A stretch of DNA of 35,501 nucleotides from Stramenopiles sp. TOSAG23-6. Lineage: Eukaryota. The notes beneath the pieces are model-generated. The model ran no database searches, had not been told where the DNA came from, and worked only from the letters and a program-made list of their open reading frames with translations. Every line of letters starts with the position of its first letter. The first letter of the stretch is position 1. The stretch is from contig LT635943.1 in NCBI GenBank assembly GCA_900128565.1, positions 1-35,501 of the forward strand, read 5' to 3'. The position numbers and the translations under genes are program-made. Positions 1,293 to 35,501 of the stretch are shown piece by piece.

Positions 1293-2469
1293 TTAATCAA
1301 ATCCTTCAACGTTTTTATGTTTTACAACATATCCACCCATATCTCCAGAACCCTGTTCGACAGTGTATGCCCAGTCTTCAAATCCTTTTACATGAAGTTT
1401 ATCTTTTGAAAGCCCTGAGTCTTCTTCTTGAAGTTTAGCAGGATGACTTGAACCACATTCATCTCCATACACTGACATAGCACGTCTATATGTATTTTAG
1501 AAAAATATTTCAAAAAAAAATCGTTACGTACAAAATTTCGTACGAAAAAAAAATCGAATTTGAAAAAAAATAAAACATACATATTTTTGAAAAAAAATAA
1601 AACATACATATTTGTTCACTTAATCCGAACATTGGGGTCGGTTGACCAACTCTCTTTGACATTTGATCACCAATATTAAGATCTTTACAATGAAGCTTGA
1701 TTTCAAATCCTGGATCGAAACTTTGGTTATACATTAGAGGAACTTCAGTTTCAAATACATATGAGTTTCCCGCCGAATATCTAACACCATCAAAAAATTT
1801 ACGTAAATCTACACCAGATTTTTTTGCTAACATTGCAGCTTCCCCAGCAGCAATAAGGTGGACTCCGGCTAACTGATTTGTAATAATTTTAACAACAGAC
1901 GCTGCTGGAGTATCTCCCATCCGCAGAACTGTGTTTGCATAACACTTCATCAAAGGTTCCCATTGATTTGATAGGGTCTCATCACCCCCAACTAAAACAG
2001 TCATCATTCCAGCTTGTAATAATTGCAACCCACCTGTTAATGGTGCTTCAAGAGAAGGTATTCCTTTGGCTTTAGCCAACATATGCAGTCTTGTTGACTC
2101 ATCTGGATCTGTGGTTGTATGATCTATCCAAGTTGTTGCACCATTTGAGTCTGCAAGAACATCCAGTAAACCACCAAAATCAGTACCCTCGCCTTCCATA
2201 ACTAGGCGAACATGAGGAGGAGCAGGCAAAGCAGTGATCAAAACATCAGAACCAGTTGCTGCTAAAGACGGAGTATCCACCCAAGTTCCACCTGCAGTTT
2301 GTATTTCCTCGCGATTTTTGTTTGATACGTCAGTCACCAAAACTTCGTGACCTTCTTTGAGCAAATTAATTGCCACGGCACGCCCGATTTGGCCTGCACC
2401 AACAACACCAACTTTTAATGAAGATGTCGCAATTGAAGACAAACAACGAGATATACACGGAGAGAGCAT
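1293..2469 (-). CDS. NAD(P)-dependent beta-hydroxyacid dehydrogenase (3-hydroxyisobutyrate dehydrogenase/tartronate semialdehyde reductase family); exons 2469-1610, 1491-1293
   Basis: Motifs VGVVGAGQIG (Rossmann), EAPLTGG, VKIITN and KDL. Removing 1492-1609 gives in-frame ...EQIYRRAMSVYGDECGSSHP... (352 aa). The N-terminus resembles a mitochondrial transit peptide. Confidence 0.85.
1492..1609 (-). other. Non-canonical intron (AT...AC, or GT...AT if shifted 2 nt), 118 nt, with duplicated 5' end
   Basis: Sense strand: CAAAT|ATGTATGTTTT...TTCGTACGAAATTTTGTACGTAAC...AAAATAC|ATATAGA. Removal restores the frame. Confidence 0.85.
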
Positions 2470-2572
2470 GGTATTCAATATTGTCCAAATATTGTGGAAT
2501 TAATAGTAGGTAGTACTTTCGTAAGACTTGTGTCTTGATCGTCGTCTTCTGAGATTTTTGACCGAATGGTTG

Positions 2573-2582
2573 GTTACCCGGT
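2573..2582 (+). promoter_or_regulatory. GTTACCCGGT intergenic motif (Reb1-like), copy 1
   Basis: The identical 10-mer also occurs at 8021-8030 and 27911-27920, each upstream of gene starts. Confidence 0.5.
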
Positions 2583-2865
2583 AATCACCCAGTCAATTAT
2601 TTTTTTTTGTCGTGATGTCCAACACGAACAACAACAACAAGTTCTCCAAACCTACTATACGTATACGTACACCTACCAAGGTTTGTTGTTGCGGATATTG
2701 TTCATCACTGACCTAATATCATTATAGTCAGATTGCCAATCGAGTCGTAGGTACATTTTTATTGACGTTCATAGCAAAGACTTTGTAGCGCACCGGAAAA
2801 GATTGTAAAGCAAAACGCTGACTTCAAGGTTCTCCACGTTACATTACTTTATAGTATTAAATATA

Positions 2866-3285
2866 ATGAATACTTCTGCAGTATCCGCCGCAACTCGCCT
2901 GTATACCCCTGTAACTCCGCATCTATCCACTGAATCATTCGAAGGTGCCTATCAAGATGAAAAATTTGTTGGTGAAATTATTCACCTCAAAGATAGTTGC
3001 TTTATTTGGTTGGGTCTTCCGACTGACATTCCATGCTTTTCAACTCTTGTTTCTGCGGTCAAACTGAATGGTCTAAATAGTTCTGTCGCAGCTACTTCAT
3101 TATTTTGTGCCGGGAGTTCTAGCTTGGATACAACTACTTGTGAAACACTTGGAAGTAGGATAACTGTGAAGACAGGAAAGCATACAACTATATCGTGTAA
3201 CTTACCACCTACCACTTCACCGAGTCTCGTTAAAATGGCAGAGAAAATAATAATAAGTCGTCTTAAAGAAAAGTCTATTCAGTAA
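2866..3285 (+). CDS. PSMG4: Proteasome assembly chaperone 4 (PAC4)
   Basis: 139 aa with the PAC4-type pattern LKDSCFIWLG...ATSL...LGSRITVKTGKHTTISCNLP...AEKIIISRLKE. Confidence 0.75.
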   Translation: MNTSAVSAATRLYTPVTPHLSTESFEGAYQDEKFVGEIIHLKDSCFIWLGLPTDIPCFSTLVSAVKLNGLNSSVAATSLFCAGSSSLDTTTCETLGSRITVKTGKHTTISCNLPPTTSPSLVKMAEKIIISRLKEKSIQ

Positions 3286-3373: not shown

Positions 3374-5275
3374 TTAAAAAAATCCACTAAGTGCGCTTTT
3401 TTCTGATTTTTCATCTTTGGAACGCGTAAATCTATTAGCAGTAGAGTCGCGATGTTTTCGTATTGCAGCGTCTCGTTCCTTGGCTAATCTCTCTTGCTTA
3501 AGCTTCCCTGTTGTATCTTCTTTCTCACGCTGAAGTTGAGCCATTCTGTTGACAAGACCAGACGTAGCATTACCATCCGCAGCTTCTCTCTTTTGCCTTT
3601 GTACTTCTTTCTGCACTGCTGTGAGATCTTTATGAAGTTGTCGAATGTTCCAAACACCAGTACCAGTATCATAGTATGCAGAAAGGTCTTCATCTGTTGT
3701 GTATGAATCTAGTGATTTTAATAATTGCCACTGTAACTCAGGTGAAATCTTTGTGAAATCTATTTTTTCTGGCGGAATTTTTTCCTCTGTACTGTCAATT
3801 GTATCTTCTTCTTCTTCAGGATGTAACATTCTCCACGATTCATAATTTGGATGTTCTTTATGAGATTCTCTTCTATTTTCACACAACCAACTATTAAGTT
3901 GTGTTTCGGATAATTGAGAGGGTGGTGGTTGATTTTCTATTATCTGCCATTCTTCATCAGTTCGCTCTATCTCCACATCGGCAACAACCATAGCTTTTGT
4001 TTCATTCAACACATCACCATATAAGTCATCATCTTCATCATCATCATCATCACTAAAAACAACTTCTAATGGATTTGAATTCTCATTAAGAAACGAATGA
4101 ATTCGATCTCGGACTAAACTCATCATTTCTTTACCTTCCACCTGACAATGTGTACCATGAAAACAACATATAAATGCATGAACATCAAATACTGCTTGTA
4201 AAGAACCATCTTTTAAATTGCGAAACACTAATGAAGGTGTCGTATGTGTTGAACTCCAACGGGTTGGACCTGTGTTGCTGGAAAAATATTGTTTTACTCT
4301 ACATTCGTTAGGTACAAAATTTAGTATGAAAAAAAAATAAATTTAAACATAAAAATGAAAACATACCACATCCTGACACTCCTCGCTCCCAATCCTGTAC
4401 CTCTAATTCAGCGTATATATCAGAAATACGCATATCATGTGTTAGACGAGCAGTACCAACTTTTGCCCCTGTACAACAAACTAAACACCAACACTTTGCA
4501 AAAATAGTATCTGATGAAAAACGAGGAGCATCGAACCATCCAGTTGGACAACAGGGGAAACATTTACCTGTTTGTACCATATTACTAGTGCTTCTACATC
4601 GAATACATTCTCCAAATGTTTCACAACAACTATAACTAGTTTCTTCTATAGTGCATCTATCGTTTACTTTATCGAAAGTTATAGTTCGTGAAGGAGGAAC
4701 ACAACAACCACAACAAAAAGAAATCCAGAAAAAGAAAAATGTATTTTCTAAAAANATTTNAAAAAAAAAAAANCTAAANTTTGTTAGGTACAACATTTCG
4801 TATGAAAAATAAATTCGAAATTGAAAAAAAAATAAAACATACATACAAGCCACCACCAAGAGTTACCACCGAAACCCTCTATTGCATCGCGGTCTACATA
4901 TGTATGGTTTAACATAAGTGATGCATGACCATTACTAAATAAAGCAGAATTCAAAGCTTGAAGAGCTTTCCATTGTTGTGCTTCGCCATATTGTGGAGAC
5001 CAAGAAATTTTGTCTCCCATGTTAAAAGCAATGAGCCCATAGATCGACATGATGAACCAGAGCCATAAGATGAACCATATTAGTTCGGACAGGATTTTTG
5101 AAGAAACTGGATGCGTCTTGATTTCAAGTACTTCAAGATTCTGTGAAAATTCAGCAGTTTCCAGGAAAGCCCACTTATTATCAGTATGAGGTCTTGAAAC
5201 ATTTGTATCGGTTGGTCGCAAATGCCGAAACTCTGGATGGGTTTTGGCGTATCGCTTTCTAATAAATTTTCTCAT
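3374..5275 (-). CDS. Hypothetical membrane protein with Cys-rich middle and acidic/coiled-coil C-terminus; exons 5275-4845, 4740-4367, 4269-3374 (start uncertain)
   Basis: Three ORF-track fragments join in frame once introns 4741-4844 and 4270-4366 are removed; hydrophobic helices lie in exons 1-2. Confidence 0.7.
4270..4366 (-). other. Canonical GT-AG intron of the same sequence family, 97 nt
   Basis: Sense strand: TGTG|GTATGTTTTC...TTCATACTAAATTTTGTACCTAAC...CAACACAG|GTCCA; phase 1, in frame. Confidence 0.85.
4741..4844 (-). other. Non-canonical intron (AT...AC / GT...AT), 104 nt
   Basis: Sense strand: CTTGT|ATGTATGTTTT...TTCATACGAAATGTTGTACCTAAC...AAAATAC|ATTTTTC; joins WWWLV to FFFFWIS in frame. 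Contains Ns. Confidence 0.8.
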
Positions 5276-5650: not shown

Positions 5651-7773
5651 ATGTCAGGATATGTTAGACGCTCAGTTCGACGTCCAGGTAGTCAACAGTT
5701 GGAACGGAGTGATGTGAAACGACTTATTCACCTTATTAAGAACAACGACCGGTCCATTAAAGTACTTCGCCTGAAAAACTTTTTATTAGCTGAACCGAAC
5801 CAAGTAGTTATTGAGGCTGTTCTGGATGCACTCTATGACAACGCCGTGGTTGAAGTTCTATACATACAGAATTTTATACATTGTATTTACTACAAAGATA
5901 TTGTAATAATGCTCACTCAACACTGCTCTTTGTCACTCACTTTTATATACTTATTTCACAAATATTACGCACATTATATGAAAAGGCAATGTTAGATCCA
6001 CAGCTTGAAAAGCTCGCTAAAGTCCTTAGACGAGGGAGAATCTGGGCTGTTAATGTAGGTGAAAACTTTAGCATATCTAATAAAGCATGGGCTAAATTTG
6101 CTGAGGAGTTGCAGTTCACAAATATTACACATATGTATGCGAATAGTGAAACAACACTTCCTCCAGAAATAAAACTTCGTATGCGTAATGTAATACGGAA
6201 TAATCGTAAAACAGATCGACGACATCGTTCTTTACAGCACTATGATGTAATTAAAGAAATTGGTCAGATGTGGTGGAATCCGAGACTTCCAATTTGTCGT
6301 GCTTTGGCAAGAAATTCAAAAGTAGCTTGTTGGTCATGTTATAGTAACATTGCTTGCGACACTATCATGCACTGTTCTGGATACGGCTGTCAAGCTCAGT
6401 ATCATTTAGACTGTTTAGAAAAGGATAAAATTTTAAGATTTCAGTCAATGAAAAATGAAGATAAAACTTCAAATTCAAATGATAAAATAAATGTTTTGAC
6501 TTCAAAACCTGCAGAATCTACTTTATTGATGTCAAAAAAGGATAATAAATGGTTTTGTAGTTTCTGTCTAGATAATAAAATATCAAAAAAACGAGGAAGA
6601 ATTTCTACTATATCTCAAGAATCAAGAAATAGTTATAAATCAAAAAATGCACGAAATGAAAGAAACAATGATAAGTTTTTGAGTATATTAGTAAAACGAT
6701 GCTCAACTCTAGGTCGACGAATTATTGTACGCATGACAGACAATGAGGAAATAAACACAATTAACAGTAGTAGGAACTCACAAAAAAGTATAATTAAAAA
6801 AAGTGATAAAACAGAAAAATCCTTTATTGGAAAATGTCAATTCCGTAAAAAAACAGTCAATGTATCTCTGAAAAATAGCAAAAAGACAAATAATCAAAAT
6901 TCTTTTCAAAACAACAACCATAGTTATGTAAATAATTGGCGTATTGGTCATATAATTCGTCAGAAAGGTCGTTGTGGACCCGTTTTAGTACATTTTCCNG
7001 TCCAAAATAAAAAAGCGAATAAAAAGTCTAAAAAATCTTGTATTGAAGAAAAGTGGATTTACTTAGATGGACGTGATAGTTTTAGTTATTGTATTGGTAC
7101 AGAATTCGTTTGGGCAAAGTTATCTTTCAAAAATGGATATCATACCCTCTCAAATGTAGATGATATTGAAACAACAGATCATATATGGTGGCCAGGTGAA
7201 GTATTTTCTTTTTCTGAAGATTGTTGTGCTGAAGTAAAGAAAGAACGCAATGGTGAAAAATTTATTGTTTTATTTGGAAAAAATGACAATTTTGATAAGA
7301 ATAATCAATGGAAGACTTCAATGTTATCATGTATACCTAACATTTCATCATGTATCTTACCAATGCATTCTACTTGTACTACAATGAAAAATCAATCAAA
7401 TAATTTGGAAATAGAAATTATCAATGAACATATTTATTGTAAAAATAATGAAAATAATGAAGCATGGATTGCAGCACTCAATCAAGCAAAACATGAACTA
7501 GGTGTACAATACAAACTACAACAAAATCAAATTGCTGCTGAAAAGTTACGTCAAGCAGGTGAAATTGCTAAAAGTTCTACACCGAACAAAGTTTACCATA
7601 GTACTTCAAGGTCTACAGAAAATGGACCACCAAGTCCTGGACATGCAAAAAAAAGGAGAATTCAAAATGATGAAATGGTTGCTAGAGCTCTCGCATTTGC
7701 TGATCGTTCACTGCAAGAAAGACAAATTGCAACACTTGCATCCACCAAAGCCAGTTTAAAAAAACAAAAATAA
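5651..7773 (+). CDS. Putative chromatin protein: LRR-like N-terminus, PHD-like finger, PWWP-like segment; one intron at about 5876-5979
   Basis: Overlapping ORFs 5651-5995 and 5881-7773 need an intron. PHD-like CWSC...HCSGYGCQAQYHLDC...WFCSFC; PWWP-like EFVWAK...WWPGEV. Confidence 0.7.
5876..5979 (+). other. Probable non-canonical intron, boundaries ambiguous
   Basis: The frame changes between LYIQNF and EKAMLDPQ across an AT-rich stretch. In-frame solutions include 5876-5979 (AT...AT) and 5883-5974 (GT...AT). Confidence 0.55.
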
Positions 7774-7825
7774 TAAAGCTTTGTGCTGCCGACGAACAAA
7801 AAATAATAAAGCTTTGTGCTGCCGA
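7763..7825 (+). repeat. Tandem duplication of about 30 bp spanning the stop codon
   Basis: AACAAAAA(A)TAATAAAGCTTTGTGCTGCCGA occurs twice. Confidence 0.85.
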
Positions 7826-8020
7826 TGACATTTGTCTTCAAGACTTTTGTTGAATCCAATAGTAAATATAATATCAACTTTAAAAAAATCCTTTAAAATG
7901 TCTTTATAAAAAAGTTATATATAATATGAAATTTCTAATTTATGTTTTGTAAATGATGATGGAGGAAAAAAAGAAAAGTTAAAATTTTCATAAAAACAAA
8001 AAAAAGGTTCAAAAATTTGT

Positions 8021-8122: not shown

Positions 8123-9670
8123 ATGACTTCACCCTCAAATGTTTCACTTGCAGATACTGCTGCAAAGTTGGGTTGTTGTCCAGCTTGTGTCTTTAGATTA
8201 ACGGCATCTTCCTCTAGTCTTTCCAATACGTCTTTTATTACGCCAGTAGATCTATCTACCTCAGATCAGCGTTGTATCGCGTGTCTTGGATTGCTACAAA
8301 AGCCAATGGATGAAATTGTGGCTCTTGTAAAAGACAAGGTTGTACAAGGAGGATACAAGCTTAACAAGAGTATTGTCGTTGATTTTTCATTACCCCCTTC
8401 GATATTAGTTCGAGAGTTTAGCATATGGCTCCAACTCGCTAAGACTCATGGCTCATCAGTATGTGGAGCCCCTCCAAGTTCATCGTCCTATTCCAGTCTT
8501 CGCTGTTTGAAACTTGCTATTCGAAATCGACTGAACCCATTATTAGCTAGTGCATTGGGTGTACCTGTAAGAGTTGCTTTAAGGAAACCTGCAGACAATA
8601 AAAAAGATGTACCTGTGGGTCAATTTAATATTCATATATTATTTGACCACTCAAAATCACAGGCTGAGTGTGTAACTATAAACCCTAAAAAATCTGATAA
8701 TAATCAAAAAAGAAGTCGTAAACGTAGACGTATTGAAACTACACCAAAAGATACAATTGCATCTGTTGTAAAAAACTTGCGTAATTTTGGTATCATGGTT
8801 GTTCAAAAAGGTATAGATGCTGTAATAGCTATGCCTGGTTTCAACTCGTCTCTAGTTGTAGTAGATGAGGCTCCTTCTTATGATATTGTTCTTTCTCGCA
8901 GCCCTATATATTTGATGGGTCGTTATATGAAGTATGCTCGTGGAGTGAGTCAATCGCCATGGTTTATTGATAATAAAAGAATGGCTGATACCTCAGTTCA
9001 TGAACTAATTGCAATAGCACCACTCAATCATTTTGGCGTAGACAAAGATTCATGTAAATTTCATACTGCAGGTCGAGAAGATGTTGATGTTCGTATGCTT
9101 GGTCGTGGTCGTCCTTTTGTTCTTGAGATTTTAAATGCTAAGCATGCATCCTGTACCCCGAGTGATTGTGTGAAATTAACTGATGAAATCAATGCATGTG
9201 CACCTGCTGAAGCTGTAGTGTCGACTGTAGATCATAAGAAATACAATGGTGCTGTTCAAGTACGTGATTTTTGTTTGTCGTCTCTTGCTGCATTTGATTT
9301 ATTAAAAGCTGGAGCTGAGTCAAAACGAAAGACATATTCTGCAGTATGTTGGATATCTAGAGATATTTCACAGGAAGAATTAAATTCAAAATTAGCAACA
9401 CGTAAAGATGTTTCTGTAAAACAATTGACACCTATCAGAGTCATGCATCGACGTACGGTTATGGTAAGAGATAAAATTGTTTATAATATTCAATGTAAAT
9501 TCATAAATAAGCGATGGTTTGTTTTAGAACTGGAAACTTCTGCGGGAATGTATGTTAAAGAATTTGTTCATGGAGATTTAGGTAGAACGACTCCCAATGT
9601 TGCTTCGATATTAGGCAATGACTGTAAATGTGATATCATCCAATTAGATGTTATGGAAGTACTGATGTAA
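8123..9670 (+). CDS. PUS10: tRNA pseudouridine synthase Pus10
   Basis: Hallmark motifs GRYMKYARGVSQSPW, AGREDVDVRMLGRGRPFVLE, QLTPIRVMHRR, AGMYVKEFVHGDLGRTTP, LDVMEV. Confidence 0.95.
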   Translation: MTSPSNVSLADTAAKLGCCPACVFRLTASSSSLSNTSFITPVDLSTSDQRCIACLGLLQKPMDEIVALVKDKVVQGGYKLNKSIVVDFSLPPSILVREFSIWLQLAKTHGSSVCGAPPSSSSYSSLRCLKLAIRNRLNPLLASALGVPVRVALRKPADNKKDVPVGQFNIHILFDHSKSQAECVTINPKKSDNNQKRSRKRRRIETTPKDTIASVVKNLRNFGIMVVQKGIDAVIAMPGFNSSLVVVDEAPSYDIVLSRSPIYLMGRYMKYARGVSQSPWFIDNKRMADTSVHELIAIAPLNHFGVDKDSCKFHTAGREDVDVRMLGRGRPFVLEILNAKHASCTPSDCVKLTDEINACAPAEAVVSTVDHKKYNGAVQVRDFCLSSLAAFDLLKAGAESKRKTYSAVCWISRDISQEELNSKLATRKDVSVKQLTPIRVMHRRTVMVRDKIVYNIQCKFINKRWFVLELETSAGMYVKEFVHGDLGRTTPNVASILGNDCKCDIIQLDVMEVLM

Positions 9671-9813
9671 AATAGTAAGCAATAATAAATTAGATTAGCA
9701 ATAATAAATTAGATGTTATGGAAGCATCAATGTAAAATAGTAAATAGTAAGTAATAATAAGCAATAATAAATGTGATTTCAAAATTATTTTTTTTTTGTC
9801 AAATTTCTAAAGT

Positions 9814-23051: not shown

Positions 23052-23300
23052 TTAAAAATTGACGGAAATAATGTATGATACAATCTAAGGTGAAGCATAT
23101 TGGGACGTTTCATAATGACATTGATCGGAAATATTTTTATTTATTATCACGTGATTGTCTCAATGTAATGTAATCATTTATGTAACAATTTATTTTTCTT
23201 TGCAACTCAAAATAAAAGAAGAATTAGTAAATTTCTTTTTATTTTTTGTCTCTATTCAATTGATCAGTATATATACAAAATAGCCAAGTAATTACATAAT

Positions 23301-24594: not shown

Positions 24595-25323
24595 TTACAT
24601 TGTCGATTCTTTGGTAACAAAGCATGGGGAAAATAATTTTGAAAATAGATTTTTTCTTTTTTGTCCTGACGTCATACTGTGGCGGCTTTGGGATATACGC
24701 GCGGCTTGTTTTTGTAAGAGATAATGTATCTTTGCTTCTTCTTTAGCTGCTTGTATAGCAAGAAGTCCTTCACCAATAAAAGCTAGCTGAAAAGCAGATA
24801 ATTTTTCTCCTGATGTAAATGCCTTTTTCCACTGTTGAGAAAGTAGTTCAACATGAACATCATTAATATCTTTTCGATGCAATTCATAATTTTTCGCACC
24901 ACAAAGAAGAGGATGTCTAAGGACATTTGCGAATTCCATTGCATGGTTTCTTCGATGAACTGCTGCATTAAGAATTGGATGAGATAAGGTAGGCAAAAGT
25001 TTCACTTTGTGATCTTGTTTCTCTTCCCTTGAACGTTTAAAATTATCAGCTGAAAAAGGAACTTTTTCATGAACACGTTGCATAGCACTCATATGACGAC
25101 GACGATAAGATGTTCGTTTGCACAAAGACATATATGATTTGGGGACTTCTTCGTGTACAAAACGAAGGGTTGTTGCGTGAGCACTTCTGGCAGCTGCAAC
25201 GGCTTCGTCATTTTTTCTCTTTTTCTCTTTTTTTGCACTTTTTGTTTGAATTAGATTTGATGAAAGCTTCTTAACCATTTTACGGAATACACCTTTTTTT
25301 TTTGAAACGTGTGGTGAACCCAT
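24595..25323 (-). CDS. Hypothetical basic protein, 242 aa
   Basis: ATG-initiated 729-nt ORF flanked by AT-rich spacers; no recognisable domain. Confidence 0.55.
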   Translation of the reverse strand: MGSPHVSKKKGVFRKMVKKLSSNLIQTKSAKKEKKRKNDEAVAAARSAHATTLRFVHEEVPKSYMSLCKRTSYRRRHMSAMQRVHEKVPFSADNFKRSREEKQDHKVKLLPTLSHPILNAAVHRRNHAMEFANVLRHPLLCGAKNYELHRKDINDVHVELLSQQWKKAFTSGEKLSAFQLAFIGEGLLAIQAAKEEAKIHYLLQKQAARISQSRHSMTSGQKRKNLFSKLFSPCFVTKESTM

Positions 25324-25668
25324 ATTGGTATGTGCTGTTCGAAAAGGTCACGAATAATGTATATTATACGTAAATGATCTCGATAAGAAAGGGATATATC
25401 GCTCTCTCTCTCTCAAGGTAATAAAGATCTCTCTCTCCTTGTCAAGCAAAGCTGAGGAGGATTCTTCTTCAAGATTTCAAAAAATTCGTCAGCTGCGTTT
25501 TTGGCGCGCAAACCTGTTTTTCTTATAAAGAGTCAGAGAAGCGGAGAGACATGACCGACTCCACTCCACTACCTATTATTTCATAATAACTCCTACAAGC
25601 TAATAATTACAAGGTTACTGCTTTCATTCTCCGTTCAAGATTTTGTAGAATAGCTGTTTTTCTCTAGT

Positions 25669-27171
25669 ATGGTAAACACAGTATATAGTGTATCTGAGAA
25701 CGATAATGGTCTAATGTTAGGTTGGCGAAGTAGTAGTGACGAATCAGACGAGAGTGACACAGATATTTGTGAATCATCGACAGATTCGGGAGTATCTGAT
25801 CTTCTAAAGGATGCAACTTTATTACAAGAAAATGCGCTTACTCAAGAATGTCTTGACAATGTAGAAAAAAAACTGAAGTCGGCATTACATGCAGCAAGCA
25901 TGTCTTTGGATCCATCGTGTTATGCTGGTGTAAGAGACAGATTGACACTACTATTATGCCAGCAAGGTGAGAGTCGTACGGAAGATGCATTACGTTTGTT
26001 GCGTTCGGGAGGTTATTTATATAGGTTATCACGAGGAGTTTTACATTACAAAGAAGCTTCTCAAGTAGAAAGTGAAAGAATGATCAAAACCTGTGCAGAT
26101 GATTCTCTACAAGAACAGTGTTCAAAAGATGAAGTCCAATATCAAAACTTTATAACTGTGCTGGATAATGCAATACCAAGTAAAATGTTTCGTGTAGTTC
26201 AAGAGGCATTTGCACCGACTTCTCTATTTTGGGAGGCACATAACTATGGTTCAGATAATCAAGGTTATTTTTCATATCTTCATCCGCTACAGCCAATTTT
26301 AACTGCAACAAAAAATGCAAATTCTAATATGCCTATACTTGAACAACTCATTTCTCATATATATAGTCTTGCAGTTATTCGTTTTCCACAACTCAAAAAT
26401 GCAAATTTTGCAGAGTGGTGGGCCCATTGCCGACCTCACTGTTCTGGTCATCAAATGCACTATGATTCAGATGCAGAAGGGGAATCTACTGGAACTGGCC
26501 CGCGACATCCAATACTATCTACTGTTTTATATCTCACTGATACTGTCGGTGGACCCACATTAGTCACAACACAAGACCGAAGAGGGAGTACACCTGAAAC
26601 ACTTGCATCACATGGTTGGATGAGTTACCCAAAGATAAATAGATTAAGTATGTTTGATGGTGGAGTTTTACATGGAGTGATTCCAGGCCGAGGTCTCCCT
26701 ACAAAACCAAATATAAAGGACAATAAAGAAAACGGTCAAAATGTAAAGTCTCCGAGAAGAATTACACTAATGATTGCATTTTGGAAAGACATTAAATCTC
26801 GACCTCGCCCATCAGATGGTACATTTGGTGCAAGTATGTTGTTTCCTAAAGTATCAAAATTAGATGACTATGATACAAATAAGTCAATGCCGTGTACCAA
26901 AACAATTGAGAAATGGTTGAAATCTTCGGCGACTTGTGTTCCTTTATTACAAAATGATATAATGAATGGTGATAGTACCATTGCTCAGGAAATAAGGCCT
27001 CCATTAATTTGTCCGGTTTGGGAACGTGTTGAAGAAATTTCACTGAATCAACTTGAAAAATCCCATCAAAGTAATGTAGATAAATCAAAGAAGACAATGC
27101 ATGTGAATATACCAAAAGTGAGTGATCTTAAACAGCTTCCCAGTTATCATTTATGTTTTCAAGGATTTTAA
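25669..27171 (+). CDS. 2OG-Fe(II) oxygenase-like protein, 500 aa
   Basis: EWWAH...HQMHYDSD (HxD)...STVLYL...GGPT...NRLSMFDGGVLHGV...RRITLMIAFW: facial triad plus distal Arg. Confidence 0.7.
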   Translation: MVNTVYSVSENDNGLMLGWRSSSDESDESDTDICESSTDSGVSDLLKDATLLQENALTQECLDNVEKKLKSALHAASMSLDPSCYAGVRDRLTLLLCQQGESRTEDALRLLRSGGYLYRLSRGVLHYKEASQVESERMIKTCADDSLQEQCSKDEVQYQNFITVLDNAIPSKMFRVVQEAFAPTSLFWEAHNYGSDNQGYFSYLHPLQPILTATKNANSNMPILEQLISHIYSLAVIRFPQLKNANFAEWWAHCRPHCSGHQMHYDSDAEGESTGTGPRHPILSTVLYLTDTVGGPTLVTTQDRRGSTPETLASHGWMSYPKINRLSMFDGGVLHGVIPGRGLPTKPNIKDNKENGQNVKSPRRITLMIAFWKDIKSRPRPSDGTFGASMLFPKVSKLDDYDTNKSMPCTKTIEKWLKSSATCVPLLQNDIMNGDSTIAQEIRPPLICPVWERVEEISLNQLEKSHQSNVDKSKKTMHVNIPKVSDLKQLPSYHLCFQGF

Positions 27172-27353
27172 TTATTTTTTATAAGGCTGTAAATAAAAGT
27201 ATGTTATCACTTATAAAAGAAGTATATTTTCAAAATATACTATAGACAGTACTTTTATTTGCAGATGGTACATTTATGGCATATACTTGAGTGAGAAGAG
27301 TACATATCAGTTGATATAAAATACTTTTATTCATTTTAATAATATGTTATTTA

Positions 27354-27821
27354 TCATCGCGGTAGCTTTTCATTGGCTCTTATTGGTACAATCAAATGCA
27401 ACCGAGTAAACTGCCATAATGATAGCCCTGAGATTATTATGAATATGAGTCCGAAAACAACTCTATAAACAAATCCAGTATCTTTTTCAACATCTCCAAG
27501 TTCTTCTATTTGTTTTTCCACACTTTTTGTTGCAGGACCACGAGGACAAGAGACTATGAATAAAATAACAACTAAAAGAATACTGCTTCCAATCGAACAG
27601 AAATAACAAAACTGGCGATGTAGTATTCCCCAAAGAGTAACACCGACACAACCAAGTAGAAATAATAATATGACAAAGACTCCAACACCAACACCAAGTG
27701 GACGTGGACCTGTAATTGCATCGTCCTCAGCTGCAAGAACTCTATAACAACTAAGCATCAAAAGGAAACTCAAATATGAATACATTTTATGTGTTGAAGT
27801 TGAATAGAATTTTGATTTCAT
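27354..27821 (-). CDS. TMEM218: TMEM218-like ciliary transition-zone membrane protein
   Basis: LGVGVGVFVILLF, three TM helices, PR motif after TM2, D..FVYRVV and C-terminal PIRA match the TMEM218 pattern. Start may be a downstream ATG. Confidence 0.6.
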   Translation of the reverse strand: MKSKFYSTSTHKMYSYLSFLLMLSCYRVLAAEDDAITGPRPLGVGVGVFVILLFLLGCVGVTLWGILHRQFCYFCSIGSSILLVVILFIVSCPRGPATKSVEKQIEELGDVEKDTGFVYRVVFGLIFIIISGLSLWQFTRLHLIVPIRANEKLPR

Positions 27822-27910
27822 TTTTATCTACGTTGTAGGGAAAACCTACGACCACTGTCAGTTTTATAGAATGAAACAAACAACCGTTACTTGCAAGAAA
27901 CGCTTAGTAC

Positions 27911-27920
27911 GTTACCCGGT
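27911..27920 (+). promoter_or_regulatory. GTTACCCGGT intergenic motif (Reb1-like), copy 3
   Basis: In the divergent promoter between the TMEM218-like gene and COX10. Confidence 0.5.
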
Positions 27921-28050
27921 CCACCGCCAACCGGATTGCAAATTGACAAGCACGTGTTGCGAAACACATACAAAACAACTTTGGTTTTTTAGCTATCATT
28001 CATTGTAGTTATTACGGTAGAGCTACAAGGACTGGTAGTATTATAATAAA

Positions 28051-29580
28051 ATGTCACATATATACGTTTCTAGTTTGATGTGTGCGATGAAACAGTCAAT
28101 AAGACCCGTTTGTCGAGCAACTTATATGAACAAAGCATTGCATCCGGGGCATAGAAAAGTGGTGATACGTTCCTTCCCAACAACGTATTCAGCGTCGTGT
28201 ATGAGTTCTTCATCTCGAGTGGTATCATCACAAGTAGTCTCTCCTAGTGTTACGACAGCTGATTCTTCTGCTGTAACTAGGCAAACTCCGCTGTCTGCTA
28301 AACGTGAAAGTATAGGTACATGGATTGGTATTTATAAAGAACTTTCGAAGCCCACACTTAGCTCACTCGTTGTTGGTTCAACTTCTGCTGGTTATTTAAT
28401 GGCCGGTGGTCCTATTAATGCTACTGCACTTGCAGCGGTATGTGTTGGTACTACTCTCCAAGCTTGGAGTGCAAATACATTTAATCAGGTTTGGGAAGTA
28501 AAAAATGATGCATTAATGAAACGAACTGCTCGTCGTCCTATGCCGACGGGTAGGATAAGTGCAGCTCACGCCTTGACGTGGGGTTGTTCATCAGGTATAG
28601 TAGGTACTGGCATTCTTCTTGCTGGTTGTAATCCACTGACAGCTAGTATAGGTGCCCTAAATATTGCATTGTATACTCTCATATATACTCCAATGAAAAC
28701 AAGAAGTAGATGGAATACTTGGGCTGGGTCAATTGTTGGTGCTTTACCTCCAGTGATGGGTTGGACTGCAGCTGGAGGTTCTTTACTCTCACCAGAACCA
28801 ATGCTTATTGGTACAACTTTATTTTTATGGCAGTTCCCTCATTTTTTTTCTCTTGCGTGGCGTTCACGATTGGATTATAAAGCCGGGGGGTATAAAATGG
28901 TCCCTGTAATGGACAAGTCTGGTCAGTGGACATCTTCTTTAATAGAACGATATATAATGTATATAGCACCTTTACCATTATTATCTAGTTACTTTGGTCT
29001 AACATCAGGAATGTTTGCAATTGAGAGTGTTGTTTTCAATGGATATTGGTTATGGATGGCACGAAAATTTTCAAAGAAGCGTACAAATAAGCATGCACAG
29101 CAGGTATTTCGTGCTTCATTGTGGTATCTTCCTGTGCTTTTAACACTTATGGTGTATCATTCGAGGAATTGGGATGAGACGAACAATTCAAAATCTAAAA
29201 GTCAAATGACAAATCTGATGGATAATGATATAAATAGTGCTTTTGATCTTAGCACAAAAGGTGCAAGAATTCGTGGCGATAAATTAGGTTTATGGGCAGA
29301 AGAAAAACTTGGTGAAATTAGATCTCAAGTATCTTCTTTATGTCCTCATGAGTGGATTGTGAATACTCCAGAAAATAATATAGAAAATACTAAAGATGTG
29401 AACAAACCTGTTATCATGAATGATTGTGTTGAAAATTCTAGTGGATTGCCCTTAGCTGACGATGATACTCCATTGACATCAACACCATCATCATTACTTA
29501 TTTCATTATGTCCTTCTGTGTTTTCGAAAACAATGAATAGTTTAGATGAAACTGTTACTGTTGTAGAAAAAAAGAAATAA
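28051..29580 (+). CDS. COX10: Protoheme IX farnesyltransferase (heme O synthase), mitochondrial
   Basis: Motifs ELSKP, ANTFNQVWEVKNDALMKRTARRPMPTGRIS, YTPMKT, NTWAGSIVGALPPVMGW, WQFPHFFSLAW, DYKAGGYKM. Confidence 0.95.
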   Translation: MSHIYVSSLMCAMKQSIRPVCRATYMNKALHPGHRKVVIRSFPTTYSASCMSSSSRVVSSQVVSPSVTTADSSAVTRQTPLSAKRESIGTWIGIYKELSKPTLSSLVVGSTSAGYLMAGGPINATALAAVCVGTTLQAWSANTFNQVWEVKNDALMKRTARRPMPTGRISAAHALTWGCSSGIVGTGILLAGCNPLTASIGALNIALYTLIYTPMKTRSRWNTWAGSIVGALPPVMGWTAAGGSLLSPEPMLIGTTLFLWQFPHFFSLAWRSRLDYKAGGYKMVPVMDKSGQWTSSLIERYIMYIAPLPLLSSYFGLTSGMFAIESVVFNGYWLWMARKFSKKRTNKHAQQVFRASLWYLPVLLTLMVYHSRNWDETNNSKSKSQMTNLMDNDINSAFDLSTKGARIRGDKLGLWAEEKLGEIRSQVSSLCPHEWIVNTPENNIENTKDVNKPVIMNDCVENSSGLPLADDDTPLTSTPSSLLISLCPSVFSKTMNSLDETVTVVEKKK

Positions 29581-29888
29581 ATTGAATAATTTGTTGAAAG
29601 AAAACAATTTTAGAAAATATTATAAAAATCAAAGATAAAAAATCCATTTTTTTTGTTATTTTTGTTAAATTTGATTTCGATGGATTTCGTGATATGAATC
29701 ATATGATATCGATATATCGATATTATAATATCAATCAATAATTTTGGCGCCGAATTTTTTTTTTGATTCCTCGTTTTTTGGAATGTCGAGAATGGTTCGT
29801 GGACAAAAGAGAGAAGTGAGAGAGATACAAAAGCTTCACACAAGTAAGAATCGTAACTTTCTGAAGAAACTTCAAATTAACAGTGAAA

Positions 29889-32542
29889 ATGTTTGTTGTA
29901 AAGCGATCAGGAGAGAAACAGCCTGTGCAATTTGATAAGATTACTGCTCGTATCAAAAAGCTATGCTGGGGTCTTGCTATCGATCCAACTTTGATTGCTC
30001 AAAAAGTTGTCATGGGTGTTTATCCTGGTGTGACAACCGTTGAACTTGACCGTCTTGCTGCTGAAACTGCTGCGTACTCAGCAACTGAGCATCCAGATTT
30101 TTCAAAGCTCGCTGCTCGCATTGAAGTATCTAACCTTCACAAAAATACTCTAAAGAGTTGGGCAAAGACCTGCAAAGTTCTTCACTCGTATGTTCATCCA
30201 AAGACAGGCCTCAATGCCTCTCTTATTTCCGACGACGTGATGGAAATCGCAGAAAAGTATGCTGATCAACTCGACGCAGCTATTATATATGATCGTGATT
30301 ATGATTATGGTTACTTTGGATTCAAGACCTTAGAGCGTGCATACCTACTACGTGTAAACGGAGTAATTGTTGAGCGTCCTCAACACATGCTCATGCGTGT
30401 CGCAGTTGGTATACACAAGGATAATATTCCAAAAGTTTTGGAAACGTATGAAATGATGTCAACTAAACATTACACACATGCAACACCAACCCTATTTAAT
30501 GCTGGTACTCGACGCCCTCAAATGTCATCCTGTTTTCTCATGACTATGAAAGAAGACTCTATTGAAGGAATTTATGACACTCTTAAAAATTGTGCATGCA
30601 TCTCGAAGTATGCTGGTGGTATTGGTATTTCAATTCACAATATTCGTGGATCTAACTCCTATATTCGTGGAACCAATGGTTCTTCAAATGGTCTTGTACC
30701 AATGTTGAGAGTTTTTAATGATACTGCTCGTTACGTTGATCAAGGGGGAGGAAAACGAAAAGGATCTTTCGCTGTTTATCTCGAACCTTGGCATTGTGAT
30801 ATTCTTGAATTCCTTCAACTGAAAAAGAATCATGGTAAAGAAGAAGCGCGTGCAAGAGATCTCTTTTATGGACTTTGGGTTCCTGATTTATTCATGGAAC
30901 GCGTTCAAAAGAATCAAGATTGGAGTCTCTTCTGCCCAAATGAATGCCCAGGTCTCGCTGATTGTCATTCGGAAGAATTTGTAGCTCTTTATACTAAATA
31001 CGAAAACTCAGGCAAAGCTCGTACAACGATGAAAGCTCAAAAACTTTGGTTTCAAATATTGGAGTCTCAGATCGAAACCGGAACTCCCTATATGTGTTTC
31101 AAAGATGCTTGTAATAGCAAATCTAACCAAAAAAATCTTGGAACTATCAAATCGTCAAATCTTTGTACTGAGATTATGGAATATACTTCACCAGATGAAA
31201 TTGCTGTCTGTAATCTTGCGTCTATCAATCTTTCCAAGTTTGTTGATGCTAAAAATCGAACATATGACTTTGAGAAACTCGTCAAGGTGTCTGAAATGTG
31301 TGCATATAATTTAAATCAAGTCATTGATTTGAACTACTATCCAGTTGAAGAAGCTCGTAATTCAAACATGCGTCATCGACCAATGTATGTTTTATTTTTT
31401 TTCAATATCAATTTTTTTTTCATACGAAAGTTTGTACCTAACGAATTTTTTTTTGAAATATTTTTCCAAAATACATTGGTATCGGAGTTCAAGGTCTTGC
31501 TGATGCTTTTATGCTTATGAAATATCCTTGGGAATCTCCGGAAGCGAAACAATTGAACAAAGATATCTTTGAAGCTATTTACTATGGTGCCATGAAATCA
31601 TCCATTGAATCTGCTAAAAAAGATGGACCGTACTCTACATTCCAAGGATCACCTCTTTCTGAAGGCAAGTTTCAATTTGATTTATGGGGTGTCACACCAG
31701 AATCAGGTCGTTTTGATTGGGATGCTCTTCGTACTGAAGTCATGAAACATGGTGCTCGTAATTCACTTCTCATTGCTCCTATGCCAACAGCTTCTACTTC
31801 TCAAATATTGGGAAATAATGAATGTTTCGAACCATACACTTCAAATATTTATTCACGTAGAGTTCTTGCTGGTGAATTTACTGTTGTCAATCGACATGTA
31901 CATTATCATCATTTATTTCATTTTTTTTTTTAAAACAAAAATCCTACAATTTCACAAACCTAACGAATTTTCAAATATAAAACAACATATTGTTTAACAA
32001 CACAGATGCTTACCGAACTAATTGACTTGGGCCTTTGGACACCTGAAGTTCGTAACCAGTTAATTGCTGATGGTGGCTCTGTTCAAAATATTCAAGGAAT
32101 TCCTGATGAGACAAAACAATTATTTAAAACTGTTTGGGAAATTAAACAAAAGTGTTTACTTGATATGTCAGCTGATCGTGGTGCATATGTATGTCAGTCA
32201 CAGTCTCTTAATGTTCATATGGCTGCTCCTAATACTGGAAAACTCACATCAATGCACTTTTATGCATGGAAAAAAGGACTGAAGACTGGAATGTATTACC
32301 TACGAACACGACCAAAAGTTGATGCAATTCAATTTACTGTCGATCAAGCTTCATTGAAGGTCACTCGAGCAATGAAAGACACTACTATCTCTGGCACAGA
32401 AAACAAAGCTCCTACAAATGTTTTGAAAGTAAAAAAAGAAAGTGCATCAAAATCAGCGCCTGGTAGTGGAAGTTGGAGTAAAGCTGGACCAGTTGCACCG
32501 TCTAGAAATGAAGTTGAAGAGTGCTTGAACTGTGGATCCTAA
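29889..32542 (+). CDS. RRM1: Ribonucleoside-diphosphate reductase large subunit; exons 29889-31382, 31475-31897, 32006-32542 (817 aa)
   Basis: ATP-cone [34 protein letters not shown], spliced [36 protein letters not shown]-terminal CLNCGS. Confidence 0.97.
31383..31474 (+). other. Non-canonical intron (AT...AC / GT...AT), 92 nt
   Basis: CGACCA|ATGTATGTTTT...TTCATACGAAAGTTTGTACCTAAC...AAAATAC|ATTGGTATC; exact removal restores the highly conserved RP-IGIG. Confidence 0.92.
31898..32005 (+). other. Canonical GT-AG intron (degenerate family member), 108 nt
   Basis: CGACAT|GTACAT...ACCTAACGAAT...CAACACAG|ATGCTT; gives VNRH-MLTEL and removes an in-frame stop. Confidence 0.88.
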
Positions 32543-33054
32543 GAGACGTGTACTGTGTGTACGACGTAGACTAGAGCATTTGCAATTTTACGATGTTGGG
32601 TATTTCTACGAGCATCCAACTGTTCATCAGAGTAGTAATATATGTTGATTATTTCTTTTTTTTATATTAATTGGCATACATAAAATTATTCAAAAAGACG
32701 ATTGCTATCATATTCTTTTTCATTTACTTTTTTTGAACTCTTTTGCGTAAAAAATATTTTTTAATACAATGAAAAACATAAAAAAAGATAAAGTAACAAA
32801 CAATAATAAACAAAAATAACCAGTCAAGACCATTTTACTGATAAAGTGCACTTACACCACCACAAAATAATATAAATAATAATTGTGTTTTGGTCTAAAG
32901 TAAGTAATAATATATAGCTCAAACTAAAACATCTATACGACATACTAAAAATGTACATCATATACTTGCATTAACTTGAACAAATTATTTGCGACATATT
33001 CTTAAATGAAAACATCTAAATATACGTCACCAATTCATGAAACCAATACATTGA

Positions 33055-34233
33055 TTAAGCCGCGATTGGAGCCTTGGAAGCAAGTGGACCAAGAGTCTTA
33101 TCTTTTTCAGCAGCAGTTTGAAATCGACCGTGACCAAATTTGGAAGACGTATCGATAAAGGAAAGAACAATTTCTTCACGAGCTTGAATAGAGACATTTG
33201 GTACAATGCTTTTACGGAGAGTGATGACACGCTTCTTGCAACCTACAACACAGCCCTTGAGCATAATCCAGTCATTACGGACAATACCGTAGTGAGGGAA
33301 ACCACCCATTGGAGTGATAGATTTAGCTGTGAGATCAACTTCTGTGGAGCATGAAGTTTCATCTCCTTTCTTACCGATGCGGTAAATCTTCTTGTTGACT
33401 TCGGTACGGTGATGGTAACCATTCTGACCAGCACGAGCAACAGAGAATGACATACGAGCAGGATGCCATGAACCAATACAAGCGACCTTGCGAAGACCAC
33501 GGTGAGTTTTTCGTGGAAGACGAGATGTTCCCCAACGAGTTGTTACACCTTCAAATCCTTTACCCTTGGTTACACCAATGCAATCAATCATTTCATCCTT
33601 GTTGAAAACGTTATCAATTGGAATTTGCTGTTCGAGAAGAGAGGTAGCAAAATCAACCTTTGCTGCAACATCACCACCGTTAATTTGGATTTCCATGACG
33701 TGAGCTTTCTTCTGGCGGAGGTTGAGTTCCTTCATCTGAGTGTGCGCGATGACACGGATGACTTGGCAGTATTTCTTCATGCGAGCAAGCTCATTGTTAA
33801 TGTCCTTCTCGGATTCAGTACCGTACTTCTTAGCAAACTTGGTGAAAGCTTTTTTCTTGGAAGCGTACCAGTTCTTGTAGAAGCGGCGTCTGACGCAATC
33901 ACTCAAGTGCTGAGCCCAGACAGTGGTAAGAGTACGGAGGCCACGTGGAGTTTCGACGTAACCAACAACTCCTACAACAATCATTGGTGGGGTTTCAATA
34001 ATGGTAACAGCCTCAACGATCTCTTTCTTGTGGAGACCAGAGCCAAGACGGTCAACAGTGCGCTGGATGTGAGTCATACCAGCCTTGTAGCCCATGAAAG
34101 CGGTAAGGTGAGGTGCGACGGAAACATCATCCTTTGGAAATTTACGGATGCGACCACGGTGACGTGCGCAACGCTTACGTGGGAGGAACCCAAGGGAACC
34201 ATGACGAGGAGCTTCGAATTTACGGTGAGACAT
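33055..34233 (-). CDS. RPL3: 60S ribosomal protein L3 (uL3), intronless
   Basis: [21 protein letters not shown]...GYKAGMTH...[16 protein letters not shown]...[13 protein letters not shown]. Confidence 0.98.
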
Positions 34234-34537
34234 TTTAGTTTATAGTGGTGTTAAGTGCTCAGAACAACAAAAAAACAACCACACGAGACAGCGACAACCA
34301 CTCTTCAAAAGTCGCGTGTGACTGACTACATAAGCAAAAATTCAGAAAAAGCAGGTTTGCGCAAGAATTTTTTTTTCTGAAACGTCCAAAAAAATAAAGA
34401 GTTTTTCAACTCTTCTTTTGAGTTAATCCAATAGAGCTACTAATATTTATCATATAGGTAGTAAACAATTTAAATTCATTCTCCCAAGGACATGTTCTCA
34501 TGCATCATTCAACATGTCATGAATACTAAACTGCGTC

Positions 34538-35501
34538 ATGCGTAGTAGAATATCCAGAGTCGAACCTGATATAATCATTGATACCAATGATCGACATTGC
34601 AAAAATGGTAAAGTTGTGCCGACAAAAAACAGTGATACTGAAAAGGCTGCTATCCCTTCCCTACCATCAATAAAACAACCACCAATAAGCGACGGAGTAG
34701 TTATAATGAAACAACAGCTAGCAAAAATGAAACGAGATCATCTTTTCTATTTAAATCGTGCTACGTCACCTTGGATGCTTTGGTGGGATATATATATCAT
34801 TCTTCTTTTAGTATACACTGCTATAGTCACCCCCTATCAAGTAGGCTATCTATCACCTGAGTATAATATTTTTTTTTACATTGATCGTCTGATTGATTGT
34901 AGTTTTGCATTAGATATGGTATTCTGTATATTTACAGCAATATGGGATGAAGAAAATGAACGATGGGTTTATGACCACAAAGCAATTCTTTCTAATTACT
35001 TTCGGTTTTGGTTTTTTATTGATTTTGTTGCAATCATTCCATTTGACTGGTTTGCTTTAGCAGGTGAAACAAATGGTGAAAGGGTACCTCAATGGATGGT
35101 TTATATGAGAGTTTTACGCCTTACGAGATTATTGCGTTTGTTTAAATTATTTGGTTTGCTTCAGAAACGAAATTACAATGTATACTTTGGAATTTCATAT
35201 AGTATGTACGTTTTCATTAGTAATTTCAAATTATTTTTTTCGTACGTAATTTTGTACCTAATGAGAAAACAGTGACATATTTTACACTACACATGATTTC
35301 TATATCAAAATGTGTTTGTATAATTGCCGTTGTAGCACATTTATCTGCTTGTTGTTGGGGTTTAGTAGGTAGTATTGAATTAGTTGATTGGACTGGATGG
35401 TTCGTTCATTATGGTATACAAAATGATACAGAAGTTTATATGTTTTCAAAATTGGATTGTTTACCTACATTTTTTTTTTTTTTTTGGTAAAAAAATTTTG
35501 A
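34538..35501 (+). CDS. Cyclic-nucleotide-regulated/EAG-like cation channel, 5' part (runs off window); exons 34538-35203, 35293-about 35435
   Basis: S1-S4 motifs WDIYIILLLVYTAIVTPY, IDCSFALDMVF, NYFRFWFFIDFVAIIPFD, LRLTRLLRLFK; S5 AHLSACCWG after the intron. Confidence 0.85.
35204..35292 (+). other. Non-canonical intron (AT...AC / GT...AT), 89 nt
   Basis: TATAGT|ATGTACGTTTTC...TTCGTACGTAATTTTGTACCTAAT...CTACAC|ATGATT; phase 0, joins to the S5 helix frame. Confidence 0.82.

Follow-up and report, generated by a model that had tools for sequence, protein, structure and literature searches.

Eight short segments with AT...AC termini interrupt genes on contig LT635943.1 of Stramenopiles sp. TOSAG23-6, whose entire stretch of 35,501 nucleotides (nt) is referred to here as the window. 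These segments are probably spliceosomal introns of a single introner-type family, spliced by the major (U2-type) spliceosome. By their sequences, the eight are copies of one introner-like family and not the outcome of independent splice-site drift. A previous sequence-only reading of the window overlooked the unity of the family, a member with GT-AG ends, an AT direct repeat at the boundaries, and the abundance of the family in a metagenome. Its statement that most introns here are non-canonical holds as a count, as the AT...AC segments make up eight of the ten introns visible in the window (the remaining two being 4270-4366 and 31898-32005), but this count reflects the spread of one family rather than eight independent departures. 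Its interpretation is supported in part; routine splicing of this kind across the genome, and an altered or permissive major spliceosome, would be conjectures. The ten introns are listed below, with family sequences read on the gene strand.

1492-1609, minus strand: family intron, 118 nt, in a 3-hydroxyisobutyrate-dehydrogenase-like (HIBDH-like) gene; AT...AC, then AT; first 27 nt tandemly duplicated
4270-4366, minus strand: family copy with GT-AG ends, GTATGTTTTC...CAACACAG, 97 nt, in the same gene as 4741-4844; frame evidence
4741-4844, minus strand: family intron, 104 nt, in a gene of unknown family; AT...AC, then AT; contains four N, and TTTTTAG 7 nt before its end
10557-10648, minus strand: diverged family intron, 92 nt, in a TPR-repeat gene; ATGTATTTTTT...CACAATAC, then AT; profile E = 2e-10; about 200 open codons on each side
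16867-16964, minus strand: family intron, 98 nt, directly upstream of an Aha1_N domain; AT...AC, then AT; branch-like CTAAA
17161-17245, minus strand: family intron, 85 nt, an internally deleted copy in the same TPR/Aha1-like frame as 16867-16964; AT...AC, then AT
18642-18737, minus strand: family intron, 96 nt, in the ornithine aminotransferase (OAT) gene; ATGTACG...CAACAC, then TT
31383-31474, plus strand: family intron, 92 nt, in the ribonucleotide reductase large subunit (RRM1) gene; AT...AC, then AT; RNA-verified
31898-32005, plus strand: GT-AG intron, 108 nt, also in the RRM1 gene; AT/GTACAT...CCTAAC...CAACACAG/AT (slashes mark the cuts); RNA-verified
35204-35292, plus strand: diverged family intron, 89 nt, in an ion-transport-domain gene; ATGTACG...CTACAC, then AT

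Boundaries, reading frames and family unity

The previously proposed coordinates were correct for all eight segments, six of which lie on the minus strand and two on the plus strand. As the sequence-only reading had described, each segment begins ATGTAYKTTTT and ends AC, and none has AG at the junction. The start motif occurs nine times in the window against an expectation of 0.38, a count that none of 100 shuffles attained; its ninth match belongs to an internal 27-nt tandem duplication within 1492-1609. In that copy the same 5' site occurs twice at a distance of 27 nt (nine codons), at 1583-1609 and 1556-1582 on the minus strand. GTAYGT is present at the 5' side of seven of the eight copies, and a CTAAC-like branch motif lies 31-43 nt before the 3' end in every one, again as proposed, taking the form CTAAC or GTAAC in six copies, CTAAA in 16867-16964, and CTAAT in 35204-35292. 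After seven segments the next exon begins with AT, the exception being 18642-18737, which is followed by TT. After exact excision, the frame is open for at least 65 codons on each side in all eight cases, upholding the claim that removal restores the frame, while the unspliced frame reaches a stop within 19-45 codons.

The eight segments align end to end on one consensus, consisting of ATGTATGTTTT, a T-run, TTTCATACGAAATTTTGTACCTAACGA, a further T-run, and then GAAATATTTTTCCAAAATAC. Pairwise identity reaches 84-92% among four young copies (1492, 4741, 17161, and 31383) and 52-78% for the other pairs. An nhmmer profile built from the eight recovers all of them plus a ninth copy at 4279-4366 (E = 8.8e-10), and the next matches in the window are no better than E = 0.4. 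This ninth copy reads tg/GTATGTTTTC...GTACCTAACGAATG...CAACACAG/gt and therefore has canonical GT...AG ends; taking out 4270-4366 fuses frames of 165 and 200 codons, and hand reading places an in-frame alternative acceptor 27 nt upstream. All nine copies, spread over seven genes within 35.5 kb, are in sense orientation. The other GT-AG intron, 31898-32005, shares 54-67% identity with the family (nhmmer E = 3.5, not significant) and is possibly a distant member. Both GT-AG introns had been implied by the sequence-only reading, and both were borne out, 4270-4366 by its frame and 31898-32005 by RNA.

Two further observations concern the state of the copies in this assembly. At 35440-35501 on the plus strand, the ion-transport gene enters ...GAAGTTTATATGTTTTCAAAATTGGATTGTTTACCTAC and a T-run, which resembles the start of a further family copy, but with ATATGT replacing GTATGT; this putative copy is interrupted by the end of the window, and 35460-35501 was treated as repeat in contig mapping. 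Seven N positions occur in the window, at 4755, 4760, 4773, and 4779 (all within intron 4741-4844) and at 6999, 10834, and 21366, and the cluster in 4741-4844 suggests that the assembler or the reads struggled in a high-copy repeat rich in T-runs.

Comparison with homologous proteins supports the exact boundaries. All eight OAT homologues are collinear across the 18642-18737 junction (NAEI-L/M-GSKLR versus NAEKMGSRLR and similar), and the junction residue is M in five of them, including the four closest, L in two, and Q in one. This collinearity excludes canonical alternatives for the OAT intron, since those would delete 5-6 residues. Among 11 homologue fragments of the HIBDH-like protein, three cross the 1492-1609 junction and all three are collinear (LSEQ/IYRRAM). 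The spliced RRM1 frame restores MRHRP/IGIGVQG, in agreement with the conserved motif RPIGIGVQG. The Aha1_N profile begins at position 3 immediately past intron 16867-16964, providing weak support for that junction. The earlier claim that removal restores conserved motifs in RRM1, OAT, and the Aha1-like gene thus stands for RRM1 and OAT, where homologues are collinear, and just weakly for the Aha1-like gene. Pfam searches with the short downstream exons (the HIBDH tail, the ion-channel tail, and the TPR/Aha1 middle exon) gave no informative match, and a protein collection queried with the OAT and HIBDH-like proteins contained no identical protein, the best identities being 83% and 72%.

Removal from RNA and retention in DNA

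Positions 15502-35501 were mapped with contigs from three polyA metatranscriptome runs of two studies (X6, X8, and X11) and from an independent seawater DNA metagenome of 2024 (X3). RNA contigs from all three runs connect 31381 to 31475, with shorter sides of 53, 49, and 29 letters; the X11 joint carries a single T between the two sides, which we read as a synonymous variant at 31382 (listed for X11). This joint was absent from DNA run X3, whose contig 14 (29272-31412) passes from the exon into the segment. Taken together, the joint in three RNA runs and the continuity of DNA into the segment show that the 92 nt at 31383-31474 are removed in RNA and retained in DNA, so that the proposed removal at non-GT-AG ends is confirmed at this intron. 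The same RNA contigs, in all three runs, connect 31897 to 32006 with a positional ambiguity of 0, identifying a GT-AG intron. The remaining seven copies would presumably be removed from RNA as well.

These data bear on the idea that the segments are excised at the DNA level, as are the internal eliminated sequences of ciliates, with the expressed genome copy lacking them. In ciliates, eliminated sequences are numerous, short, and rich in AT, with precise boundaries and a 2-nt direct repeat on either side, and the segments share each of these properties, being very numerous. However, X3 contig 14 retains the exon-segment junction, and the 31381/31475 joint appears in three RNA runs and not in DNA. 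Furthermore, the 5' splice-site and branch motifs are in sense orientation in all nine copies, a feature needless for DNA cutting, and the organism clusters with stramenopiles rather than ciliates. We therefore give DNA-level excision hardly any weight.

The metagenome also reveals how widespread the family sequence is. On the 20-kb stretch, X3 yielded 5026 contigs, 2190 of which fit two places. Summed word depth in X3, which is not a copy number and may draw on contigs from more than one organism, was 12,834, 5,748, 441, and 353 in the four segment-bearing bins versus 3.8-10 in the other 26, and the single-position depth inside two family copies reached 121,349 and 80,157. The flanks of the matching contigs disagree with one another (loose-end agreement 0.40-0.42), and their similarity is limited by the A of ATGTATG on one side and by a point just beyond the downstream AT on the other. 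Around 17161-17245, for example, similarity of other copies halts at 17245 and at 17157/17158, while at the RRM1 intron X3 contigs match through ...ATACAT to 31476 and then diverge. A dispersed and very abundant repeat with exactly these ends thus exists in an independent assembly. Because the same repeat ends recur in this independently assembled 2024 metagenome, they are not an error of the present assembly; the systematic assembly error that the sequence-only reading had named as a possible refutation is thereby ruled out. A scan of metagenome contigs with the internal family motif, leaving the termini free, returned five loci, none of which was family-like on inspection.

Misassembly at repeat ends, or true introns that are in fact nearby GT-AG pairs keeping the frame by coincidence, would account for the unusual termini as artefacts. 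Within 45 nt, each of the eight segments does have GT/GC-AG pairs that keep the frame (3-13 apiece), one copy contains four N, and for 35204-35292 the alternative 35202-35272 (GTATGT...AAACAG) is both canonical and credible, so that this GT-AG pair may be the true intron and is a real alternative at that locus. The RNA joint 31381/31475, in contrast, is compatible only with removal of 92 nt and refutes this explanation for 31383-31474. For the OAT and HIBDH-like proteins, collinearity with homologues requires exact removal, independently assembled contigs of the 2024 metagenome continue through the RRM1 segment end, and identical ends in eight of eight members of one family are no coincidence. 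For the family as a whole, we regard an artefact as very improbable.

The polyA RNA contigs, too, are rich in family sequence. Position 17181 had a summed depth of 103 in X8 and 525 in X11, compared with about 2-50 in covered exon bins, the bins of high family depth in these two runs being 16836-17502 and 30843-31509. Such depth is what unspliced or excised copies, summed over many genes, would be expected to produce.

Origin of the family, splice-site register and spliceosome

In the mechanism that we propose, a short (85-118 nt), AT-rich repeated element would spread through genes and become an intron at each landing site. Each copy brings a GTATGT or GTACGT 5' signal together with a branch motif resembling (G)TACCTAAC, placed 31-43 nt before the 3' end, as well as a T-rich stretch and an A/C-rich tail terminating in AC. 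Placed at an AT of the host gene, a copy would generate the arrangement AT[GTATGT...AC]AT, from which the element and one AT would be removed in RNA, restoring the host coding sequence. The excised piece could be written as AT...AC or as GT...AT, neither of which is GT...AG. An element of this kind would be tolerated in genes because it supplies its own splicing signals, and the major spliceosome would carry out the excision. The RRM1 AT lies within a conserved Ile codon and OAT relatives have Met (ATG) at the junction, which indicates that one AT predated the intron. As in known introners, near-identical introns occur in unrelated genes (nine copies in seven genes, with the metagenome contigs presumably of one-organism origin) and splicing is precise, as judged by RNA for one of the eight, by collinear homologues for three, and by reading frame for all eight. 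The family is probably mobile.

Due to the AT flanks on both sides (AT[GTAYGT...AC]AT), excision as AT...AC and as GT...AT yields the same mRNA, and the ambiguity raised by the sequence-only reading is real, given that seven of the eight segments are followed by AT. In the GT...AT register the intron RNA starts GUAUGU; in the AT...AC register it starts AUGUAUGU. Only for 18642-18737 does the mRNA depend on the register, with AT-AC giving Leu (...ATT/TTG) and GT-TT giving Met (...ATTAT/G). Our estimate for the GT...AT register, in which the 5' cut falls at the G of GTATGT, comes to just under an even chance. GTATGT is an ideal U1/U6 partner in this register. Moreover, the GT-AG intron 31898-32005 shares the AT/GTAC context and has ...CAACAC before its AG, yet RNA shows that it is cut at GT and AG, and the AG of the two GT-AG introns lines up with the AT or TT that follows AC elsewhere. 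The GT-TT reading also retains the Met found in the four closest OAT relatives, the difference being one conservative change either way. AT 3' ends are common in the U2-only tunicate Fritillaria (PMC13326754).

The AT...AC register is a substantial possibility as well, at somewhat less than even, leaving a small share for something other than these two registers. AT and AC are both found in eight of eight segments and the downstream AT in seven, a single exception in eight from which no statistics follow. An AC 3' end, which characterizes U2-type AT-AC introns, is thus present throughout. In 4741-4844, hand reading indicates that pairing GT with TTTTTAG would yield an in-frame TAA, and an intron starting with A would naturally ignore this TTTTTAG; countering this argument, an AG likewise lies 8 nt ahead of the frame-compatible end of 4270-4366, the GT-AG copy. 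A terminal A-C pair is reported to be isosteric with G-G (PMC13326754), and an engineered AT-AC intron is spliced in yeast (PMC5029451).

A serious rival to excision by the major spliceosome is excision by the minor (U12-type) spliceosome, whose small nuclear RNAs (snRNAs) would, as in Physarum, have co-evolved with altered signals; on this view, AT-AC or GT-AT ends would be normal for U12 splicing and no sign of a relaxed major spliceosome. We consider this unlikely. The sequence-only reading had assigned the introns U2-type signals, and in this respect GTATGT, the distant CTAAC, and the lack of classic U12 motifs stand, but it dismissed the minor spliceosome too fast in view of Blastocystis and Physarum. 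GTATGT with CTAAC is the textbook U2 pair, and the usual spacing from a U12 branch site to the 3' end is about 10-15 nt; the family distance of 31-43 nt falls within the 45-nt search window of intron classifiers. The CC at +5/+6 of the U12 5' site is GT in the family. Its branch region departs from TTCCTTRAC near the 3' end, with ACCTAAC one T short of TCCTTAAC and 31-43 nt away. In addition, the GT-AG family copy and the RNA-verified GT-AG intron carry the same kind of signals. An Rfam search of the window returned no family at threshold and no minor snRNA, a result from 35 kb that says little.

Several observations speak for the U12 explanation. In the GT register the 5' end GTATGTTT agrees with GTATCCTT at six of eight positions; against the complete U12 5' site /RTATCCTT, which the family does not contain, the AT-register start /ATGTATGT scores four of eight and the GT-register start /GTATGTTT six of eight (consensus from 10.1101/2020.10.12.336362). 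U12-type introns accept AT-AC and other 3' ends (PMC10639083), and the stramenopile Blastocystis possesses the complete set of four minor snRNAs together with hundreds of minor introns, of which 77% are AT-AC (PMC10639083, PMC5608401). The thousands of U12-type introns in Physarum are transposon-like, with inverted repeats and a TA direct repeat, and the Physarum U12 snRNA co-evolved with a new branch motif (10.1101/2020.10.12.336362).

Removal might also be guided by RNA structure and proceed without a spliceosome, as proposed for the nonconventional introns of euglenids and the hairpin introners of Amoebophrya. Non-canonical ends combined with a short direct repeat across the boundaries recall Amoebophrya introners, and the family ends do contain an inverted repeat, though a short and imperfect one (ATGTAT(G)TTTT versus AAAATACAT). 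Against this, fold z-scores range from -1.41 to +1.22, with none of the nine segments folding better than shuffled sequence, and minimum-energy structures leave the ends unpaired. The RNA hairpin model was rejected because no end-to-end helix was found in the predicted folds of the nine segments, and the conserved GTATGT and CTAAC favour a spliceosome. Structure-guided removal accordingly seems extremely improbable to us.

The following points weigh against one introner family spliced by the major spliceosome, which nevertheless remains our preferred interpretation. RNA supports removal of one segment of the eight, and RNA contigs stop short of 16867-16964, 17161-17245, 18642-18737, and 35204-35292; moreover, all mapped runs consist of assembled contigs, which cannot reveal splicing efficiency, lariats, or rare isoforms. 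The proposed role of the major spliceosome is based on motif resemblance. For the family copies, we found neither an autonomous element nor a clear terminal inverted repeat nor a locus-specific target duplication, and within this one genome no copy showed presence/absence polymorphism. The sole direct repeat is the invariant AT, which is equally compatible with an insertion preference: because it is identical at every locus and nothing locus-specific extends beyond it, a target-site duplication cannot be told from landing beside an AT. To our knowledge, a G...T terminal pair, as in the GT register, has no citable precedent. Simple rules for choosing the 3' end also failed, in that in four diverged copies another AC intervenes between the branch site and the AC that restores the frame, and an AG between the branch site and the 3' end is passed over in three (4741, 17161, and 35204). 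Finally, in the AT register, /ATGTAT agrees with the U2-type AT-AC consensus /ATAAGT at three of six positions (consensus from PMC5029451).

Comparison with known systems, host and neighbouring genes

The GT-AG rule applies to about 99% of introns in almost all eukaryotes. In 2019, Henriet et al. reportedly described non-canonical introns in the larvacean tunicate Fritillaria borealis and its relatives. There, as in the window, the majority of introns depart from GT-AG; AT or AC, lying inside a YAY triplet, is a frequent 3' end, and YAY often recurs just upstream of the 5' site, an arrangement that we liken to that of the family (PMC13326754). The introns are processed by a U2-type spliceosome, and a link to introner transposons with weak splice sites has been discussed; however, Fritillaria has also altered the 5' end (in AG/AC and AG/AT classes), shows a great diversity of termini, and has lost the minor spliceosome (PMC13326754). 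In the present family GTATGT is intact, one uniform end type dominates, and the host is a protist.

The family resembles introners of Micromonas, Aureococcus, and many aquatic protists in consisting of short, near-identical introns in unrelated genes that are precisely spliced, and the hosts of those introners are likewise marine microbial eukaryotes, stramenopiles included (PMC9860276, PMC12130899, PMC11282704). One splice site of known introners is often borne by the element while the other is recruited from a duplicated target; unlike the AT-AC/GT-AT family with its repeat of just AT, the families described in these sources have GT/GC...AG ends and mostly target duplications of 3-9 bp (PMC9860276, PMC12130899, PMC11282704). 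Since introner surveys start from annotated introns, they would miss an AT-AC/GT-AT family. More than 60% of introns in the parasitic dinoflagellate Amoebophrya are also non-canonical, some being repeated elements with direct repeats that overlap the boundaries (PMC7789003). Amoebophrya introners carry 3-5 nt direct repeats and hairpin-forming inverted repeats of 8-20 nt, with no common terminal dinucleotides and no U1 detected (PMC7789003), whereas our family has uniform ends, no significant hairpin, and a perfect U1-type 5' signal.

Similarities extend to U2-type AT-AC introns of animals and to the engineered and RPL30 AT-AC introns of yeast, which have AT...AC ends without U12 motifs and in which A-C can replace G-G (PMC5029451). 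Known U2-type AT-AC introns number a few dozen per genome and carry a strong /ATAAGT (PMC5029451), whereas the family, if AT-AC, has an /ATGTAT site and accounts for eight of ten introns in the window. Physarum polycephalum and Blastocystis likewise contain many AT-AC or non-canonical introns (10.1101/2020.10.12.336362, PMC10639083, PMC5608401); Physarum shares with the family a proposed transposon origin, inverted repeats, and a 2-nt direct repeat (10.1101/2020.10.12.336362), and Blastocystis a stramenopile host (PMC10639083, PMC5608401). The minor introns of both differ in having an RTATC[C/T]TT 5' site and a branch near the 3' end (10.1101/2020.10.12.336362, PMC10639083, PMC5608401), in contrast to the GTATGT-like site and distant branch of the family. 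No description of a U2-like AT-AC/GT-AT introner in a stramenopile was found in the portions of the literature covered, which lie outside the supplementary tables of introner surveys, where one might be listed. In the text available from MAST genome papers, introns received at most two passing mentions, with nothing on splice sites. Introners, including non-canonical ones, are thus already known, and the U2-like AT-AC/GT-AT stramenopile family appears to be new insofar as no description was found.

A broader joint reading, which we advance tentatively and hold to be somewhat less than evenly probable, is that thousands of copies of a single introner with an A-C or G-U terminal pair have entered the genes of a free-living, abundant marine stramenopile. 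Most introns of this organism would then break the GT-AG rule uniformly, with a perfect 5' signal of U1 type and a branch site of U2 type retained. The major spliceosome would have to cut 2 nt upstream of the U1/U6 pairing, or else take ACAU as the 3' splice site, passing upstream AGs. If true, this would represent a new genome-wide splice-site choice in a protist, made by a mobile element and not by slow drift. The large-scale GT-AG breakers (Fritillaria, Amoebophrya, euglenids, and the minor introns of Physarum) are the main natural experiments on the limits of splice sites, to which the family would add a simple case with one family, one end type, and intact 5' and branch signals. Because GT-AG siblings reside in the same genes, the effect of the terminal nucleotides can be isolated. 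For the study of intron gain, the family would exemplify an element that spreads without canonical ends. In practical terms, gene predictors restricted to GT/GC-AG would break many genes of this uncultured group.

The window is gene-dense, with a G+C content of about 36%. Its RPL3 protein shares 87% and 84% identity with two proteins in EukProt, one of which is named GSMAST32; the next named matches, at 72-75%, include oomycetes, Ectocarpus, Heterosigma, and Aureococcus, and three named plant and fission-yeast entries (497-584 residues, 59-72% identity) are also in the top four by bit score. The host is probably a heterotrophic marine stramenopile, and its tentative placement near MAST-3 follows the name GSMAST32.

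Several neighbouring genes have features of their own. At 16392-18140 on the minus strand, taking out both family introns places a TPR-like frame (weak Pfam matches), a 196-nt middle exon, and Aha1_N in one frame, which suggests a single gene for a TPR plus Aha1-N co-chaperone-like protein. The best matches of the OAT gene product (18360-19994, minus strand) are, after a small number of eukaryotic relatives (up to 83% identity), many proteins of Bacteroidota and other bacteria at 72-77%; this closeness of eukaryote and bacterium is unusual and could reflect gene transfer in either direction. A perfect 33-nt tandem duplication is present at 11269-11334 within the 620-codon frame of the TPR gene on the minus strand, and near-perfect repeats occur at 7766-7828 (33-nt spacing) and 9642-9755 (65-nt spacing). 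Lastly, 20727-22043 on the plus strand encodes, in one frame, a stretch resembling linker histone, a Tudor-like region matched weakly, and an FKBP peptidyl-prolyl isomerase domain at the C terminus.

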